Source: Escherichia phage vB_EcoS_GZMU_E2010. From it: 44,255 bases of DNA. Positions 37,738 through 39,851 of the stretch are shown in pieces. Below the pieces are notes generated by a model. That model was not told the origin of the DNA. It saw only the letters and a list, made by a program, of their open reading frames with translations, and did not search any database. The stretch's first letter is position 1. Every line of letters starts with the position of its first letter. Both the position numbers and the translations under genes were made by a program. The stretch lies in sequence record PV845598.1; one strand, given 5' to 3'.

Positions 37738-37887
37738 CTATTTTCGGCTTACCACCCATTGCAGTAATTGATTTATGCAATCTGCTTTCGAAAACCCGTT
37801 AAAGGACTTTGAGTAAACACCGTACATCACAGTCAAAAACACCGTTCCGCGGTATTCATCAAATAAAACATCATCAAACTCAATCAT
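37738..37887 (-). CDS. small hypothetical protein (49 aa)
   Basis: Hand-translated MIEFDDVLFDEYRG...; ATGA overlap with the upstream stop. Confidence 0.35.
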   Translation of the reverse strand: MIEFDDVLFDEYRGTVFLTVMYGVYSKSFNGFSKADCINQLLQWVVSRK

Positions 37888-38120
37888 CCCCCACTCTCCT
37901 CTTTAGCAATACGTTGCTCAGTTTTAGTGATGCCCCTGCGCGTGAATAACACCGGGCTTGTCTTAACGTGCGTCATAAGACGGTTGTTATAAATTACGTG
38001 GCGCTCGCAGTCAACGTCTTTGCTGTACTTCGCAATCGTCATTTCGTTGATGCCGGTTTGTCGGCATGTCTCCGCCATCGTGCCGTATTCTTTTATCAGG
38101 TTCGGAATGCTGGTAATCAT
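37884..38120 (-). CDS. hypothetical protein with possible HTH (78 aa)
   Basis: ORF; AETCRQTGINEMTIAKY segment; coupled to neighbours. Confidence 0.5.
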   Translation of the reverse strand: MITSIPNLIKEYGTMAETCRQTGINEMTIAKYSKDVDCERHVIYNNRLMTHVKTSPVLFTRRGITKTEQRIAKEESGG

Positions 38121-38314
38121 TCTGCAGCAATCTCCACTATGGATATAATTACAACCTTCGAGTTGGGTGGCATACGCGAGGCCACATCTGATTCAATCGA
38201 TCGAATATCCTTTACTGTAAGTTTTTCACCTTTTTCTGGTGACGCCGTACAGTTGCCGAGGCCAGTTCCTGCGACGCTTGTCCAGGCATAACTGATAAAG
38301 AAACGTTTCATCAT
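38117..38314 (-). CDS. small protein with N-terminal signal-like segment (65 aa)
   Basis: ORF 38117-38335 begins with GTG; ATG 38314 overlaps the upstream stop; MMKRFFISYAWTSVAGTGLGNC. Confidence 0.45.
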   Translation of the reverse strand: MMKRFFISYAWTSVAGTGLGNCTASPEKGEKLTVKDIRSIESDVASRMPPNSKVVIISIVEIAAE

Positions 38315-38478
38315 AAGAAATTCCTCGTTGTCCACATCGCATTCGGATATTTGTTATCGCGGTCCTGCACTACGGCAATCATGTTACCCCGTTGCACCAG
38401 GCAGAAGTGCCGTTGCTGCTCGCCGTTGTAGCGACGCCAGATTGCTTCTTCGATTGCTGCGTTGATGTCGCTGAACAT
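38311..38478 (-). CDS. small hypothetical protein (55 aa)
   Basis: Hand-translated MFSDINAAIEEAIWRRYNGEQQ...; below ORF-track cutoff. Confidence 0.4.
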   Translation of the reverse strand: MFSDINAAIEEAIWRRYNGEQQRHFCLVQRGNMIAVVQDRDNKYPNAMWTTRNFL

Positions 38479-38561
38479 TAGTATCTACCCCACAGAAAAC
38501 CGACCAATAGCCCAATGAAGTAACTAAGACCAACCAGACTTATAACAACCTCAAGACTCAT
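38478..38561 (-). CDS. tiny hydrophobic peptide (27 aa)
   Basis: Hand-translated MSLEVVISLVGLSYFIGLLVGFLWGRY; stop overlaps next ATG (TAATG). Confidence 0.25.
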   Translation of the reverse strand: MSLEVVISLVGLSYFIGLLVGFLWGRY

Positions 38562-38565
38562 GCTC

Positions 38566-38757
38566 TCACCCCACTATCTCATCGCCAAGCCACGCCGTTT
38601 CTCGTATATCGTCTACTACACACGCAGCGTGCTCACGGCTAATTGCAAAAATGTAGAAGCTGAACTTCTTCCCGTCGGCGTCGATATGGTTAACCGAGTA
38701 GGGTTTCCACAAGACGCCATCTATAACTACTGGCTCAGGCGCTTTCATACCCATCAC
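38566..38757 (-). CDS. hypothetical protein (~62 aa)
   Basis: ORF; start probably the ATG at 38754. Confidence 0.5.
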   Translation of the reverse strand: MMGMKAPEPVVIDGVLWKPYSVNHIDADGKKFSFYIFAISREHAACVVDDIRETAWLGDEIVG

Positions 38758-38932
38758 CGGAGGCTTTGTTAAGGTTGAAGCGGTTAATCAGTTCACGACG
38801 TGTCTCGTAAAGCGACTCTACCATTTGCTCGGCTACCGCGATTTTAGTATTCAGGACGTACATAACGTGGCTGATGTCTACGCCGCCGTTGACAGCCTCT
38901 ACCATCATCTTTTCATAGTCTCGGTCAGTCAT
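38735..38932 (-). CDS. hypothetical protein (65 aa)
   Basis: ORF; ATGA overlap upstream. Confidence 0.5.
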   Translation of the reverse strand: MTDRDYEKMMVEAVNGGVDISHVMYVLNTKIAVAEQMVESLYETRRELINRFNLNKASGDGYESA

Positions 38933-39087
38933 TCTTTACGCTCTCCCCACATGCGATTGAGATACTTGTTCTTGTCCGGCCCCGGGAAACTGTTACGTTT
39001 CATCAGTTCCTCTCGTGTCGGGAACGAGGTGTGACTGACTTTACGGCCTACTCGTAATGGTTGGCTTACTTGACCTTGTTCGCTCAT
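38929..39087 (-). CDS. small hypothetical protein (52 aa)
   Basis: Hand-translated MSEQGQVSQPLRVGRK...; ATGA overlaps at both ends. Confidence 0.4.
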   Translation of the reverse strand: MSEQGQVSQPLRVGRKVSHTSFPTREELMKRNSFPGPDKNKYLNRMWGERKE

Positions 39088-39281
39088 TCTACAATCTCCC
39101 ATTTAACGCCGTGGAAGCCATCACCTTCATCGTTACCAAAGTCTATGAAAATATAGCAGTCGTCGTCGGAGTCTATATAACCGAAACCAGTAGCTGTCGG
39201 GTTGTACACATCGTACACTTTACCATCTGTCACATAGTCAAGGGCGGCTAACCAGAGAATTTTAGCGGCTTTAACTTTCAT
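39084..39281 (-). CDS. acidic hypothetical protein (65 aa)
   Basis: ORF; coupled to neighbours. Confidence 0.5.
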   Translation of the reverse strand: MKVKAAKILWLAALDYVTDGKVYDVYNPTATGFGYIDSDDDCYIFIDFGNDEGDGFHGVKWEIVE

Positions 39282-39487
39282 TTCTTCTCTCCTGCAAACT
39301 TAAATTTAGCCTCGAACTCCTTTCTACCAACACAATATTCTGAATAGGATTCATTGAATTTCACCAATGGGTAGTCGGCGATAAGTACGTGGTCCAACCC
39401 AACCGCAGTTACAATGAAACTAACTTCACCTACATCACCCCACGAGTAATTACTCTTATAGATGCCACCAACGATAACGTCGATCAT
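39278..39487 (-). CDS. hypothetical protein (69 aa)
   Basis: ORF; coupled to neighbours. Confidence 0.5.
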   Translation of the reverse strand: MIDVIVGGIYKSNYSWGDVGEVSFIVTAVGLDHVLIADYPLVKFNESYSEYCVGRKEFEAKFKFAGEKK

Positions 39488-39639
39488 TTCTTCTCTCCTG
39501 CATAAGCTGCTTTCAGTGTCTGCATCGCGGCGAACCAGAATGCAGCCGCTGGGATGCTGTTGCTCAGGTTGCTAACGGCGATGCGTGCCATCAGTTGTGC
39601 GTCTTTGAATGCTTCGATATCTGTGATTTTCATCTTCAT
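39484..39639 (-). CDS. small hypothetical protein (51 aa)
   Basis: Hand-translated MKMKITDIEAFKDAQLMARIA...; overlaps both neighbours. Confidence 0.4.
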   Translation of the reverse strand: MKMKITDIEAFKDAQLMARIAVSNLSNSIPAAAFWFAAMQTLKAAYAGEKK

Positions 39640-39851
39640 TATCCTGCGTTGAATGAGCCTAATACGATGCCACTTTCTTTTGGTTTCTTGATTTCGGTAA
39701 CTTTTACGTTATCGTTGAAGTTATTCATGGTTGTCGGGTCATCCTTAGCACGGACCAAGCTCAAGGCTTCTTCTGGCGACTTAGCCCACACCACAAAAGA
39801 ATCGTATTGGTCGTAATCACACCAGGCAGCTTCTACTAAATATAATTTCAT
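39639..39851 (-). CDS. hypothetical protein (70 aa)
   Basis: First ORF downstream of promoter 39886-39914. Confidence 0.5.
   Translation of the reverse strand: MKLYLVEAAWCDYDQYDSFVVWAKSPEEALSLVRAKDDPTTMNNFNDNVKVTEIKKPKESGIVLGSFNAG

Follow-up and report, generated by a model that had tools for sequence, protein, structure and literature searches.

The genus Kagunavirus comprises small lytic siphoviruses (PMC11990801). Arrays of small genes are annotated in Kagunavirus and Jerseyvirus phages (CR01, OR061068; fEg-Eco06, PQ141284; fBC-Eco01, OM272052; phage 26, MZ832314), and the three arrays described here, A to C, are identical to those in position, strand, order, and core genes. CR01 carries part of array A at 97.6% identity, and in fBC-Eco01 the annotated order downstream of the endolysin gene is likewise promoter, terminator, promoter, at the site of our P1-T2 unit, and the repeated "phage promoters" of its annotation are also shared. 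The phage studied here differs from these relatives in its own combination of accessory genes (A01, A03, A04, A10, A12, B01, B02, C03, and C04), and the best single record covers at most 83% of array A and at most 59% of the array B/C region. The annotation of CR01 lacks the micro-ORF A08 and has a plus-strand ORF in place of the minus-strand A10.

Array A resembles the nin region of lambdoid phages (lambda ninA to ninH; P22 ninH and ninZ), where small, tight, partly overlapping, and mostly dispensable-looking genes, including those for NinH-like and DUF2737 (NinZ-like) proteins, form a mosaic with exchange at gene boundaries. The nin region, however, sits between the replication genes and Q and is transcribed from pR under N antitermination, whereas the block here lies between the endolysin gene and terS and has its own sigma70 promoter; also unlike the lambdoid phages, this phage shows no sign of lysogeny, and its NinH match lies under the Pfam cutoff. 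The class I genes of T7, the pre-early genes of T5, and the early ORFs of T4 are likewise host promoter-driven, very small, variable, and mostly of unknown function. In T7, T5, and T4, experiments have established that these genes are early and that several act on the host (Ocr, Gp0.7, Gp2, Dmp, Alc, and others), whereas here early timing is predicted, for arrays B and C only, array B adjoins the lysis genes, and no product matches those families. Finally, the P1-T2 unit upstream of array A recalls lambda pR′-6S RNA-tR′ in having a near-consensus promoter and an intrinsic terminator within ~65 nt, no ORF, and a long codirectional late operon with internal terminators downstream. Unlike in lambda, the products that were scanned yielded no Q-family protein and no obvious promoter-proximal −10-like pause element was found at P1-T2; moreover, a second promoter follows the terminator, and the unit lies after rather than before the lysis genes.

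Layout of the small-gene arrays

The window, i.e., the whole 44,255-nt stretch that was analyzed, is a complete Kagunavirus-type (Guernseyvirinae) coliphage genome of 44,128 bp plus a 127-nt terminal overlap. Positions 1 to 127 are identical to 44129 to 44255, and the junction crossed by array C is therefore genuine; the last 29 codons of C02 (28 residues and the stop) recur at 44136 to 44222 for the same reason. The three minus-strand arrays contain 25 small ORFs of 27 to 158 aa (Table 1), and all of the approximately 25 tiny ORFs of the original prediction were present, at the same or very close coordinates. Array A has the endolysin gene on one side and the terminase genes on the other and is flanked by terminators; Shine-Dalgarno-like purine runs precede its starts. 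Among the 22 internal junctions, 11 have a 4-nt ATGA overlap and 3 a 1-nt TAATG/TGATG overlap, so that the overlaps that had been claimed are seen at 14 of them. Of the three operons originally proposed, array B is not a closed one: no terminator was detected between it and the holin/endolysin genes.

The two array regions are matched by 396 and 328 Guernseyvirinae records. Nothing points to lysogeny in this phage: array A had no match in 5,426 complete Escherichia coli genomes, and the genus is described as lytic (PMC11990801). The rightward module encodes a primase-helicase-type AAA_25 protein, two HNH-AP2 endonucleases, a PD-(D/E)XK nuclease, a single-stranded DNA-binding protein, DNA polymerase A, and an SNF2 helicase. 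No phage-encoded RNA polymerase was recognizable among the ORFs scanned.

Table 1. Arrays, genes, and control elements in the window. Because tblastn in the frame under test seeded the alignments, the dN/dS values are biased downward.
Feature	Position	Strand	Description	Family match	Related loci	dN/dS
Array A	37738-39851	minus	12 genes, 27-78 aa
Array B	41312-43109	minus	7 genes, 45-158 aa
Array C	43316 through junction to 405	minus	6 genes
T1	40042-40070	minus	terminator-like hairpin CCCGGA..TCCGGG, then TTTTATTTT T-run
P1-T2	39937-40036	minus	orphan unit: promoter, ~65-nt ORF-less C/U-rich transcript, terminator		37
P1	40036-40008	minus	TTGACA-17-GATACT
T2	39966-39946 (stem)	minus	terminator stem, then T8
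P2	39886-39914	minus	array A promoter TTGACT-17-TATATT, then conserved purine-rich leader		~35
A01	39639-39851	minus	70 aa; first after P2	phrog_5444, E = 2.5e-8	2 of ~45	0.20
A02	39484-39639	minus	51 aa, helical; subfamily core	phrog_2180, E = 7e-26	44 (47-59% identity in Jerseyvirus-like loci)	0.21
A03	39278-39487	minus	69 aa, accessory cassette	phrog_20019, E = 3e-37	2
A04	39084-39281	minus	65 aa, acidic, accessory		6 (85-94% identity)	0.25
A05	38929-39087	minus	52 aa; subfamily core	Pfam DUF2737, 35.7 bits (cutoff 25)		0.20
A06	38735-38932	minus	65 aa, helical; subfamily core	phrog_1402, E = 7.5e-23	44
A07	38566-38748	minus	60 aa, beta-beta-beta-alpha	phrog_10509, E = 4e-35		0.05
A08	38478-38561	minus	27 aa, hydrophobic micro-protein, one membrane-spanning-like segment		13 (frame whole)	0.09
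A09	38311-38478	minus	55 aa; Kagunavirus core	phrog_5407, E = 2e-25	27	0.12
A10	38117-38314	minus	65 aa, accessory; ATGA overlap at each end		3 (intact; 49-97% identity)
A11	37884-38120	minus	78 aa, NinH-like; subfamily core	phrog_268, E = 1.7e-30	40	0.14
A12	37738-37887	minus	49 aa, accessory; last of array A	phrog_16162, E = 2.5e-7	5	0.31
T3	37727-37706	minus	weak hairpin and T-run, downstream of A12
P3	37705-37676	minus	promoter-like TGTACA-18-TATAAT ahead of terS
P_B	43139-43167	minus	array B promoter TTGCAC-17-TACTAT; palindrome AATAGTAGTCTATT over −10
B01	42972-43109	minus	45 aa, acidic, accessory	phrog_35344 (weak)	12	0.28
B02	42824-43000	minus	58 aa, accessory		3 (79-100% identity)	0.26
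B03	42355-42831	minus	158 aa	phrog_6094, E = 3e-47
B04	42155-42358	minus	67 aa, hydrophobic N terminus, two Cys; subfamily core	phrog_3766, E = 4e-36	45	0.17
B05	41784-42152	minus	122 aa, acidic coiled coil, CxxC end	phrog_29624 (C-terminal part only)
B06	41602-41784	minus	60 aa; MVQRY start as in B05		13 (41-55% identity)	0.14
B07	41312-41605	minus	97 aa, basic, net charge +16; subfamily core	phrog_9632, E = 2e-53	47
P_C	440-468	minus	array C promoter TTGCAC-17-TACTAT; palindrome AATAGGATACTATT (plus strand: AATAGTATCCTATT, 439-452)
C01	214-405	minus	63 aa, basic	phrog_12538, E = 4e-13	30	0.42
C02	8-217	minus	69 aa from GTG or 68 aa from next ATG	phrog_30617 (partial)	32 (11 full length)
C03	43937-44146	minus	69 aa, accessory, revised GTG start	phrog_2010, E = 1e-17 (residues 4-67)	3
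C04	43678-43944	minus	88 aa, accessory		9	0.17
C05	43513-43674	minus	53 aa; Kagunavirus core	phrog_15836, E = 3e-31	34	0.16
C06	43316-43516	minus	66 aa	Pfam DUF551, E = 8e-14, 52.6 bits (cutoff 22)	31
C/B terminator	43282-43261	minus	intrinsic terminator between arrays C and B
Extra palindrome	43296-43309	minus	perfect copy ahead of C/B terminator

Core genes and exchangeable cassettes

We separated core from accessory genes with a presence/absence matrix of 52 loci, across which the endolysin-terS interval ranged from 1,635 to 3,585 bp. The core of array A consists of A02, A05, A06, and A11, joined by A07 and A09 within Kagunavirus; that of array B of B03, B04, and the AP2-like B07; and that of array C of C01, C02, C05, and the DUF551 gene C06, which had been correctly recognized as such. 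Besides the core, the arrays contain about ten accessory cassettes, a set that changes from one close relative to the next. By our reading, the A01 slot is hypervariable, being occupied in relatives by roughly nine different genes or none. Two cassettes are bracketed by exact or near-exact junction repeats: A03 by the exact 19-nt TGCAGGAGAGAAGAAATGA (39278 to 39296 and 39484 to 39502) and B05 by a 17-nt repeat (41768 to 41784 and 42136 to 42152). A03 also occurs in 20 GenBank phages, one of them of 121 kb (Av-05). The MVQRY start shared by B05 and B06 was seen as originally described, and their likeness is largely due to the 17-nt DNA repeat at both gene starts, together with a weak BLASTP similarity (E = 0.004 over ~36 aa, 39 alignment columns). 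Domain shuffling among relatives involves the MVQRY and CxH..CxxCG modules: the latter is found in some relatives' versions of the swappable C-terminal tail of A06, and P0187 carries B05 fused with the B03 C terminus.

About 20 of the 25 products match PHROG families, two of these also being Pfam DUFs, while A04, A08, A10, B02, C04, and B06 had no PHROG or Pfam match at the E-value cutoffs used; 18 of the 25 are characterized by family membership or composition alone. By its family matches the core of array A is nin region-like, with a NinH-like protein, a DUF2737/NinZ-like protein, and two others. The A11 product scores 26 bits against Pfam Phage_NinH, under the 29.8 cutoff, is annotated as NinH in relatives, and would be a DNA-binding protein of the Fis type: the NinH of lambda mimics Fis, and NinH-type proteins bind and bend DNA (PMC7166090). 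The A05 family spans 507 phage records, including lambdoid ones (HK75 and Stx-converting phages), and is labeled NinZ-like in one relative. The A06 product has the conserved motif RRELINRFNLNK, and its N terminus also aligns with the first half of phrog_268, the NinH family. B07, directly upstream of the holin genes, is a putative degenerate AP2-like DNA-binding protein: its family profile had only two matches in the PDB, both AP2/ERF (WRI1, E = 6e-4), and Pfam AP2 weakly matched four of nine homologues, the window's own protein not among them. Both the NinH-like and the AP2-like assignments in the window are under the Pfam curated cutoffs.

The B03 product is the predicted Cys-rich protein; it has a coiled coil at the N terminus and, beyond it, eight Cys residues forming two zinc ribbon-like CxH..CxxC motifs, the second degenerate in this phage (family-consensus Cys153 is Arg); AlphaFold2 modeled the helical N terminus with confidence and the C terminus with low confidence. 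Its family is highly diversified, with >1,000 clusters at 90% identity and lengths of 107 to 276 aa among 120 listed. The signal peptide proposed for B04 is plausible, although its hydrophobicity is moderate, and the product is possibly exported; the signal-like N terminus proposed for A10 is weak by hydrophobicity. The Kyte-Doolittle 15-residue maximum of A08 is 2.39.

A07 is under the strongest constraint of all array genes and is Kagunavirus specific, with only 33 clusters, nearly all >90% identical; its AlphaFold2 model has a pLDDT of 82, and its start is most likely ATG 38748, a correction to the original call. A relative's label for this protein, "RNA polymerase inhibitor (Gp2)," could not be confirmed. 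For C03, GTG 44146, with GAGGGAGG 5 nt upstream, is most likely the start rather than ATG 44182.

Promoters of arrays B and C and the question of host takeover

The sigma70-like promoters proposed for the arrays are present and conserved. Both P_B and P_C are kept in relatives, are 81% identical across 53 nt, leader included, and P_B coincides with a PHIRE "phage promoter" annotated in fBC-Eco01. Sites of the form TTGCAC/TTGACx-17-TAYWRT number 8 in the genome versus 1.3 expected, and 7 of them stand immediately ahead of arrays B and C, replication-module genes, the exonuclease island, and a small plus-strand gene. The 14-bp palindrome AATAG-N4-CTATT occurs in 13 copies versus 0.92 expected; its half-sites are conserved and its central N4 varies in relatives. 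From its symmetry, position, and conservation, we infer that it is an operator. The palindrome is also borne by the DNA-metabolism promoters, consistent with early or middle coregulation.

The early timing originally assigned to all arrays is thus plausible for B and C, which have the promoter class of the DNA-metabolism genes, but is not supported for A, in view of its different promoter, its endolysin-terminase location, its nin region-like core, and the "middle" classification of NinH. The latter comes from the only published Kagunavirus time course, a coarse study of 57 annotated genes at a resolution that excludes the array ORFs, in which NinH falls with replication, structural, and lysis genes and is absent from the 4 early genes (PMC12645636).

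The original prediction cast the arrays as early genes of the kind that usually serve host takeover or antidefense; in such an arsenal, small proteins made right upon injection would inactivate host enzymes or immune systems by binding. We consider this reading unlikely, although not without appeal, given that the genes are small, densely packed, and without functional annotation and that the ten or so cassettes turn over fast between close relatives. In Pfam and PHROGs, none of the 25 products matched a known family of antidefense or takeover proteins; the sole recognizable features were DNA-binding or zinc ribbon-like (NinH-like, AP2-like remnant, and CxH..CxxC modules). The B03 family does diversify very rapidly, as arms-race proteins would, but the core genes, DNA-binding types included, keep their synteny in two genera whose hosts differ, and a phage with no RNA polymerase gene among the scanned ORFs would have little use for a global inhibitor of RNA polymerase. 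Arrays B and C begin beside the divergent control region and share the DNA-metabolism promoter class, as early genes might; array A is away from that region, and NinH is "middle." The Kagunaviruses tested as members of the BASEL collection were highly sensitive to restriction-modification systems and variably so to Old (PMC11990801), which speaks against a strong general antirestriction arsenal. Nothing here shows the array genes to be host takeover or antidefense genes, and an antidefense role is possible for some of the variable cassettes.

Probable separate control of array A

P2 differs from the TTGCAC-17-TACTAT promoters of arrays B and C, and its hexamers, spacing, and leader are kept across related loci; a degenerate palindrome, ACTAGTTGACTATT, overlaps its −35 element. 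Upstream, T1 directly follows the endolysin stop codon. The T2 stem of the P1-T2 unit shows compensatory changes in Jerseyvirus-like loci, and the unit had only subthreshold matches in Rfam. Downstream of array A, the structural operon runs for about 25 kb; strong intrinsic terminators interrupt it at several points, and consensus promoters on the minus strand are absent from it.

This setting raises the question of whether the array A core (A02, A05, A06, and A11) serves DNA packaging or late-gene control instead of early functions, for example as small DNA-bending or accessory factors for terminase or a late-promoter switch. The order of the four genes just ahead of terS is constant in both Kagunavirus and Jerseyvirus-like loci, DNA is bound and bent by NinH-type proteins in a Fis-like manner, and array A sits between P1-T2 and the terminator-rich, promoter-poor structural operon; yet it has its own promoter, hairpin T3 and the separate promoter-like P3 precede terS, and in Jerseyvirus-like relatives an operator-bearing "early-type" promoter drives the array. 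The lambdoid NinH and DUF2737 homologues are delayed-early genes of the nin region, and neither is known to have a role in packaging. We regard the packaging or late-control role as improbable.

Coding evidence

A head-to-tail chain of minus-strand ORFs spans 99.8% of array A, whereas across 300 dinucleotide shuffles the coverage averaged 57.5% and never exceeded 78.6%; the same rigid test did not discriminate arrays B and C from chance. In Guernseyvirinae loci from IMG/VR, every ORF had homologues with an intact frame. Third-position changes were overrepresented in the ORFs of all arrays, with pooled dN/dS values of 0.05 to 0.42 (0.15 to 0.19 for the control genes TerS, endolysin, and holins) that derive from as few as two loci each for A01 and A03 and three for B02 and A10; the coding evidence for C03 comes from one full-length pair. 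The minus-strand frame of A10 is the conserved one and occurs in 32 GenBank phages, 28 of them at <60% identity, those listed (41 to 44%) being Salmonella phages. That many of the hand-called sub-60-aa ORFs arose by chance and are nongenic is very hard to credit: A01, A03, B02, C03, and A10 are known from very few relatives, the six ORFs named above lack a family match, and CR01 is annotated on the opposite strand at A10, but all of these ORFs have intact frames and surplus third-position changes, A10 is kept at ~43% amino acid identity in the Salmonella phages, the A08 frame is whole and constrained, the array A chain far exceeds its shuffles, and ATGA overlaps tie these ORFs to well-supported neighbors.

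Discussion

The arrays are probably of the mosaic kind, made up of small-gene cassettes, that typifies Guernseyvirinae siphoviruses. Since no phage RNA polymerase was recognizable in the scanned ORFs, host sigma70 RNA polymerase would have to transcribe them, from the three conserved promoters. The resulting messages would be polycistronic, with ATGA/TAATG overlaps and Shine-Dalgarno-like runs within the preceding gene coupling translation, and such coupling would account for genes of 27 to 158 aa packed with essentially no spacer. Accessory cassettes would be swapped at short conserved junction sequences. Arrays B and C and the DNA-metabolism genes may form one regulon through the 14-bp palindromic operator that their promoters share over the −10 element; because this operator is common to them, arrays B and C would be early or middle and turned down by a putative phage-encoded dimeric DNA-binding protein. 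Array B may be cotranscribed with the lysis cassette, and array A would be a nin region-like cassette block under separate control ahead of the terminase genes.

Such arrays are an ordinary feature of these phages, already annotated in GenBank relatives, and the regulatory elements met along the way are of more interest than the small genes themselves. Extrapolating from a few members, the core products (small DNA-binding, zinc ribbon, and coiled-coil proteins and membrane micro-proteins) would have phage DNA and gene expression as their main targets, and the variable cassettes alone would be reasonable candidates for host-specific or counterdefense functions.

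Genome layout and reading frames of the arrays

Positions 1-127 are identical to 44129-44255, which indicates that the phage genome is a closed circle of 44,128 bp. Phage records matching the two small-gene regions numbered 396 and 328, and almost all belonged to Guernseyvirinae of Escherichia or Salmonella (Kagunavirus and Jerseyvirus). Escherichia phage CR01 was the closest to 37600-39950 (97.6% identity over 83%), and the maximum coverage of 41250-44255 by any single record was 59%. A megablast search with array A as the query found no match in 5,426 complete E. coli genomes, so resident prophages do not share the array at DNA identities of at least 85%. 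We found no phage RNA polymerase among the ORFs scanned, no tRNA genes in the window and no Rfam family at gathering score anywhere in it. Modules, arrays and control elements are collected in the table below.

The claim of the original prediction that the three arrays consist of many very small, mostly translationally coupled genes was borne out. All 25 ORFs were present, with 12 in array A (A01 to A12; 27 to 78 aa), 7 in array B (B01 to B07; 45 to 158 aa) and 6 in array C (C01 to C06), and the 22 internal junctions included 11 ATGA overlaps, 3 one-base TAATG or TGATG overlaps and 2 overlaps of 8 nt. The starts in array A were preceded by purine-rich, Shine-Dalgarno-like runs. A head-to-tail chain of ORFs covered 99.8% of array A on the minus strand, compared with 73.8% on the plus strand and a mean of 57.5% (maximum, 78.6%) in 300 dinucleotide shuffles. 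The same test did not discriminate for arrays B and C, because the algorithm took the longest ORFs only, with a fixed overlap limit.

Next, we looked into the conservation of the frames in 80 loci around endolysin homologues from IMG/VR, about 50 of which were Guernseyvirinae. Homologues with an intact frame were recovered from the IMG/VR loci for every ORF. Substitutions fell mostly at third codon positions, and the pooled dN/dS ranged from 0.05 to 0.42 (controls TerS, endolysin and holins, 0.15 to 0.19); these ratios tend to be too low, since each alignment was seeded in the frame under test, and those of A01, A03, A10, B02 and C03 come from one to three relatives only. The most constrained gene was A07 (dN/dS = 0.05), which is confined to Kagunavirus. 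The most doubtful ORF was A10, where the opposite strand is annotated in CR01; its minus-strand frame has about 43% amino acid identity in Salmonella phages and ATGA overlaps at both ends. Members of PHROG families accounted for 20 of the 25 products, two of which were also Pfam DUFs. Translation of C03 probably starts at the GTG at 44146, preceded by GAGGGAGG, and that of A07 probably at the ATG at 38748.

Some features of the DNA-metabolism module were recorded alongside. The replication genes include two plus-strand genes of the HNH-AP2 homing-endonuclease type (4887-5381 and 10580-11077). The first rightward gene (874-1017, plus strand) encodes a 47-aa zinc-ribbon protein with weak PHROG matches (E = 1 × 10−5 to 3 × 10−4) to an HNH endonuclease, endonuclease VII and a Lar-like restriction-alleviation family, and its leader contains an inverted repeat with 12-bp arms, GCTTGAAGTACC...GGTACTTCAAGC. 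At this position in fBC-Eco01, a helix-turn-helix protein is encoded instead, beside the divergent control region and on the other strand from the arrays.

Core genes and exchangeable cassettes

We separated core from accessory genes with a presence/absence matrix of 52 loci. Genes A02, A05, A06, A11, B04 and B07, together with a divergent B03, were core in both genera; A07, A09, C01, C02, C05 and C06 were core within Kagunavirus; and A01, A03, A04, A08, A10, A12, B01, B02, C03 and C04 were accessory. The endolysin-terS interval, which holds array A, varied from 1,635 to 3,585 bp across loci, and by our own reading of the relatives the slot right after promoter P2 is occupied by roughly nine different genes or by none.

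The A03 gene is flanked by an exact 19-nt repeat, TGCAGGAGAGAAGAAATGA, comprising a Shine-Dalgarno sequence and a start/stop overlap, and B05 is flanked by a 17-nt repeat encoding MVQRY. Two genes beginning with MVQRY had been predicted to be paralogues: their shared start stands, and the 17-nt repeat explains most of the likeness, with a weak similarity over about 36 residues besides (E = 0.004). B03 contains two copies of a mini zinc-ribbon, CxH[DE][WF]...CxxCG, a module that some relatives also have added onto A06, and one database protein consists of a B05-like N terminus fused to the C terminus of B03. These sequence patterns indicate that modules are shuffled between genes.

The same arrays are already annotated, mostly as hypothetical genes, in CR01, fEg-Eco06, fBC-Eco01, phage 26 and many other phages. 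As a type of locus, they are comparable to the nin region of lambdoid phages and to the clusters of small early genes in T7, T5 and T4. They are an ordinary trait of this phage group, present here as a new mosaic combination; being standard in the group and found in dozens of public genomes, they are in themselves of little consequence. The comparison does set about 15 core genes apart from about 10 swappable cassettes, with the exact junction repeats as exchange points. For engineers of these compact 41- to 44-kb phages, which serve as synthetic-biology chassis and can be rebooted from synthetic DNA, the junctions show where payloads can probably be inserted, and the split singles out the genes to be screened first for functions specific to a host.

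Products of the arrays

Judged by its sequence matches, A11 is best called NinH-like. It belongs to phrog_268 (E = 1.7 × 10−30), carries the name NinH in the annotation of relatives and matched the Pfam family Phage NinH (PF06322) over model positions 7 to 56 of 60 (26.0 bits, below the cutoff of 29.8; E = 8.6 × 10−6). No solved structure was matched by its sequence. Lambda NinH itself forms a Fis-like homodimer of the helix-turn-helix type and both binds and bends DNA (PMC7166090). A05 is a member of DUF2737 (PF10930; 35.7 bits, cutoff of 25), with homologues in lambdoid phages, and is called NinZ-like in one relative. The expected DUF551-like protein is C06, which matched the full domain (PF04448; 52.6 bits, cutoff of 22).

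The expected Cys-rich protein, B03, has eight cysteines in two CxH...CxxC motifs; in this phage, Arg replaces the final Cys of the consensus for the family. More than 1,000 clusters at 90% identity make up the B03 family; those among the 120 listed range from 107 to 276 aa, and the coiled coil varies in length. The AlphaFold2 model of B03 had a mean pLDDT of 59, with values below 50 in the Cys-rich half, and was confident solely in the helical N terminus. We also observed that coiled-coil segments have been inserted or deleted in this family around a conserved zinc-ribbon-like core and that, among the matches listed, the long contigs were all of about 40 to 46 kb, the usual size in Guernseyvirinae.

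The signal peptides suggested for two products held up in part: the N terminus of B04 is only moderately hydrophobic, and the signal-like N terminus of A10 is weak. A08 is a hydrophobic micro-protein of 27 aa. B07 is basic (net charge, +16), and its Kagunavirus form is truncated, lacking the first beta-strands. A profile of the B07 family retrieved only two sequences from the PDB, both AP2/ERF proteins (WRI1, E = 5.9 × 10−4; TEM1, E = 0.19). Weak matches to Pfam AP2 (PF00847; best E = 1.3 × 10−3) were obtained with four of nine homologues, and B07 itself had no Pfam match. The AP2-like remnant may derive from an HNH-AP2 DNA-binding domain of the kind present in the endonucleases of the replication module.

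In fEg-Eco06, the homologue of A07 is labeled "RNA polymerase inhibitor, similar to 2LMC." We compared A07 with T7 Gp2 (2LMC and 2WNM) by running phmmer against all PDB sequences with E values up to 10, which returned polycystin-2 alone, and Pfam gave no match. AlphaFold2 produced a good model (pLDDT, 82) with a beta-beta-beta-alpha fold, for which Foldseek found no significant match in the PDB. The genomic precondition for a Gp2-type inhibitor, which binds the beta-prime jaw of the host enzyme, is an RNA polymerase of the phage's own, and it also appears to fail among the ORFs scanned, so a general inhibitor of the host enzyme is hard to reconcile with this phage. The annotation, attractive as it is, was not confirmed.

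None of the 25 products matched a known takeover or anti-defense family in Pfam or PHROGs. In BASEL phenotyping, Kagunaviruses were highly sensitive to restriction-modification and variably sensitive to Old (PMC11990801). Together, these results leave the idea that the arrays are the seat of host-takeover and anti-defense proteins unsupported for the arrays overall; for some of the variable cassettes, such a role is possible.

Transcription units

Sigma70-like promoters had been proposed to drive the arrays, and we identified them ahead of the arrays, with P1 and P2 between the endolysin gene and array A, P_B ahead of array B and P_C ahead of array C. Dense, coupled small genes under host-type promoters are thus what the arrays contain. 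P1, terminator T2, P2 and the leader that follows P2 are kept in about 35 related loci, and in Jerseyvirus-like loci the pairing of the T2 stem is retained by compensatory changes. The order promoter, terminator, promoter after the endolysin gene is already in the GenBank annotation of fBC-Eco01. P_B and P_C are 81% identical over 53 nt, leader included.

Modules, arrays and control elements of the phage genome
Feature	Position	Strand	Sequence, content or context
DNA-metabolism module	874-12498	plus	AAA_25 primase-helicase-type gene, two HNH-AP2 endonucleases, PD-(D/E)XK nuclease, ssDNA-binding protein, DNA polymerase A, SNF2 helicase
Leftward module	414 through junction down to 12661	minus	Array C, terminator, array B, two holin-like genes, endolysin, control region, array A, terS, terL, structural genes
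P_C	468-440	minus	TTGCAC-17-TACTAT; start of array C
Array C	43316 through junction to 405	minus	C01 to C06
Intrinsic terminator, clean	43282-43261	minus	Between arrays C and B
P_B	43167-43139	minus	TTGCAC-17-TACTAT; start of array B
Array B	41312-43109	minus	B01 to B07
T1 hairpin	40070-40042	minus	After endolysin stop
P1	40036-40008	minus	TTGACA-17-GATACT; near-consensus; after T1
ORF-less C/U-rich stretch, ~65 nt	Between P1 and T2	minus	Contains UCACCUCCU
T2 terminator	Stem 39966-39946; to 39937	minus	Stem followed by eight T
P2	39914-39886	minus	TTGACT-17-TATATT; then purine-rich leader, then A01
Array A	37738-39851	minus	A01 to A12
Weak hairpin and T-run	37727-37706	minus	After A12
Promoter-like sequence	37705-37676	minus	TGTACA-18-TATAAT; ahead of terS
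Promoters with palindrome over −10	4102, 6684, 10330	plus	Replication module
Promoter with palindrome over −10	22478	plus	Ahead of Mre11/SbcD-type exonuclease island
Promoter with palindrome over −10	31606	plus	Ahead of small plus-strand gene
Palindrome copies	439-452, 4068-4081, 4112-4125, 6694-6707, 10340-10353		
Palindrome copies	22494-22507, 31622-31635, 39906-39919, 43138-43151, 43296-43309		

Neither a terminator nor a convincing promoter was detected in the 75-nt gap that separates B07 from the first holin gene; we therefore predict a single unit of array B plus the lysis cassette, with its end at T1. Within that gap (41245-41283, minus strand), the holin Shine-Dalgarno sequence is part of a CUGGAGG stretch with which CCUCCAG is able to pair. 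The pairing is a possible translational brake on the lysis genes, which are apparently cotranscribed with array B.

A palindrome shared by the promoters of arrays B and C

A 14-bp palindrome, AATAG-N4-CTATT, lies across the spacer and the −10 element of both P_B and P_C. When at most one mismatch is allowed, the whole genome has 13 occurrences, compared with 0.92 expected, and none of 100 shuffles reached 13. It covers the −10 region of at least seven conserved promoters, P_C and P_B among them. In relatives, the half-sites are conserved and the central four bases are variable. This is the pattern of an operator for a dimeric protein, and AATAG-N4-CTATT looks like that of a phage regulator. 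Through this palindrome and promoter class, the DNA-metabolism genes and arrays B and C would be coregulated. At P2, ahead of array A, there is a degenerate copy only, over the −35 element; in Jerseyvirus-like relatives, the equivalent of array A stands under an operator-bearing promoter.

These results bear on the timing of the arrays, all three of which had been taken as early. For arrays B and C, "early" can reasonably be inferred, since they share a promoter and operator class with the DNA-metabolism genes; the contiguity of array B with the lysis genes weakens the case. The evidence on array A points away from early timing: its promoter is a separate one, it sits between the endolysin and terminase genes, and its core is nin-like. 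In the only published time course of a Kagunavirus, that of K1B4, which used coarse classes, NinH was "middle," along with 42 of 57 genes, including the lysozyme and structural genes (PMC12645636). A literature search yielded nothing relevant on Jerseyvirus RNA-seq, CM001 or Jerseyvirinae promoters. Overall, what the original prediction observed stands, and its interpretation is partly supported.

Two plus-strand features were noted among the leftward genes. An island within the tail-gene region (22767-24354) encodes an Mre11/SbcD-type exonuclease (phrog_704, E = 1.6 × 10−165) and an ATPase-like fragment, and its promoter (22478-22506) is of the same operator-bearing class. An 81-aa gene without a family match (31661-31906) lies antisense inside the structural operon as a moron-like insertion, with its own operator-bearing promoter (31606-31634) and a bidirectional terminator (31907-31941); GGCCCC..GGGGCC terminators like this one are also present at 12633-12667 and 24523-24557.

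The plus strand has two copies of an element of about 150 nt, one at 625-795 in the divergent control region beside array C and one at 31388-31560 within the structural operon, upstream of a plus-strand gene. The copies are 89% identical overall and identical over the last ~75 nt, and the element is 78 to 92% conserved in 17 related loci. Its 3' part contains TTCACA-18-CATATT with the dyad AAGCTC-N5-GAGCTT. There was no Rfam match, and RNAalifold reported no covariation on a MAFFT alignment in which variable hairpins were misplaced. We folded subsegments of each sequence instead, and one internal hairpin paired via different stems (GUGC/GCAC, GGAC/GUCC, GUGCC/GGCAC, GGGC/GCCC and CACG/CGUG).

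The orphan promoter-terminator unit

P1, the ORF-less stretch and T2 make up a unit (39937-40036, minus strand) that is conserved across the subfamily, and the C/U-rich part of its transcript contains UCACCUCCU, which resembles the 3' end of 16S rRNA. The structural operon of about 25 kb has strong intrinsic minus-strand terminators inside it (31911-31930, 31311-31330, 28918-28939, 24529-24544 and 21794-21817), and we found no consensus minus-strand promoters after them. Read-through or antitermination may thus be required for transcription of the late genes.

One possibility is that a new processive antitermination system, not of the Q type, loads at the P1-T2 unit and is needed to pass the terminators of this 25-kb late operon. 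Like lambda pR'-6S-tR', it combines a strong promoter with a close, ORF-less terminator upstream of late genes that contain internal terminators. Unlike the lambda Q system, it showed no obvious promoter-proximal pause element, and no Q-type protein was found among the products scanned; these products gave no matches to antiterminator families, and no −10-like element was evident in the first 25 bases transcribed from P1.

Alternatively, the unit could produce a small anti-Shine-Dalgarno RNA. We calculated duplexes of its transcript with the purine-rich leader of each array; these had energies of −17 to −26 kcal/mol and were not among the top sites (genome-wide mean, −12.2 kcal/mol; standard deviation, 5.1; best, −32.6 kcal/mol). 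At permissive thresholds, Rfam returned sub-threshold matches only for 39850-40210, such as a Betaproteobacteria toxic sRNA at 25 bits (gathering score, 50). With unexceptional pairing energies and sub-threshold Rfam matches, the small-RNA role gained no support.

The operator and the P1-T2 unit can be joined into one scheme, which we regard as unlikely in its entirety. One phage-encoded dimeric regulator would shut off arrays B and C and the DNA-metabolism genes, the P1-T2 unit would serve as an antitermination site or an anti-Shine-Dalgarno RNA, and the regulator would be one of the small core proteins, such as the NinH-like A11, the AP2-like B07 or another.

The regulatory architecture around the small genes is previously undescribed for Guernseyvirinae, and its elements, noticed in passing, are what is most worth an experiment. 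If confirmed, the shared operator and the orphan promoter-terminator unit would explain temporal control in a common, little-studied phage subfamily.
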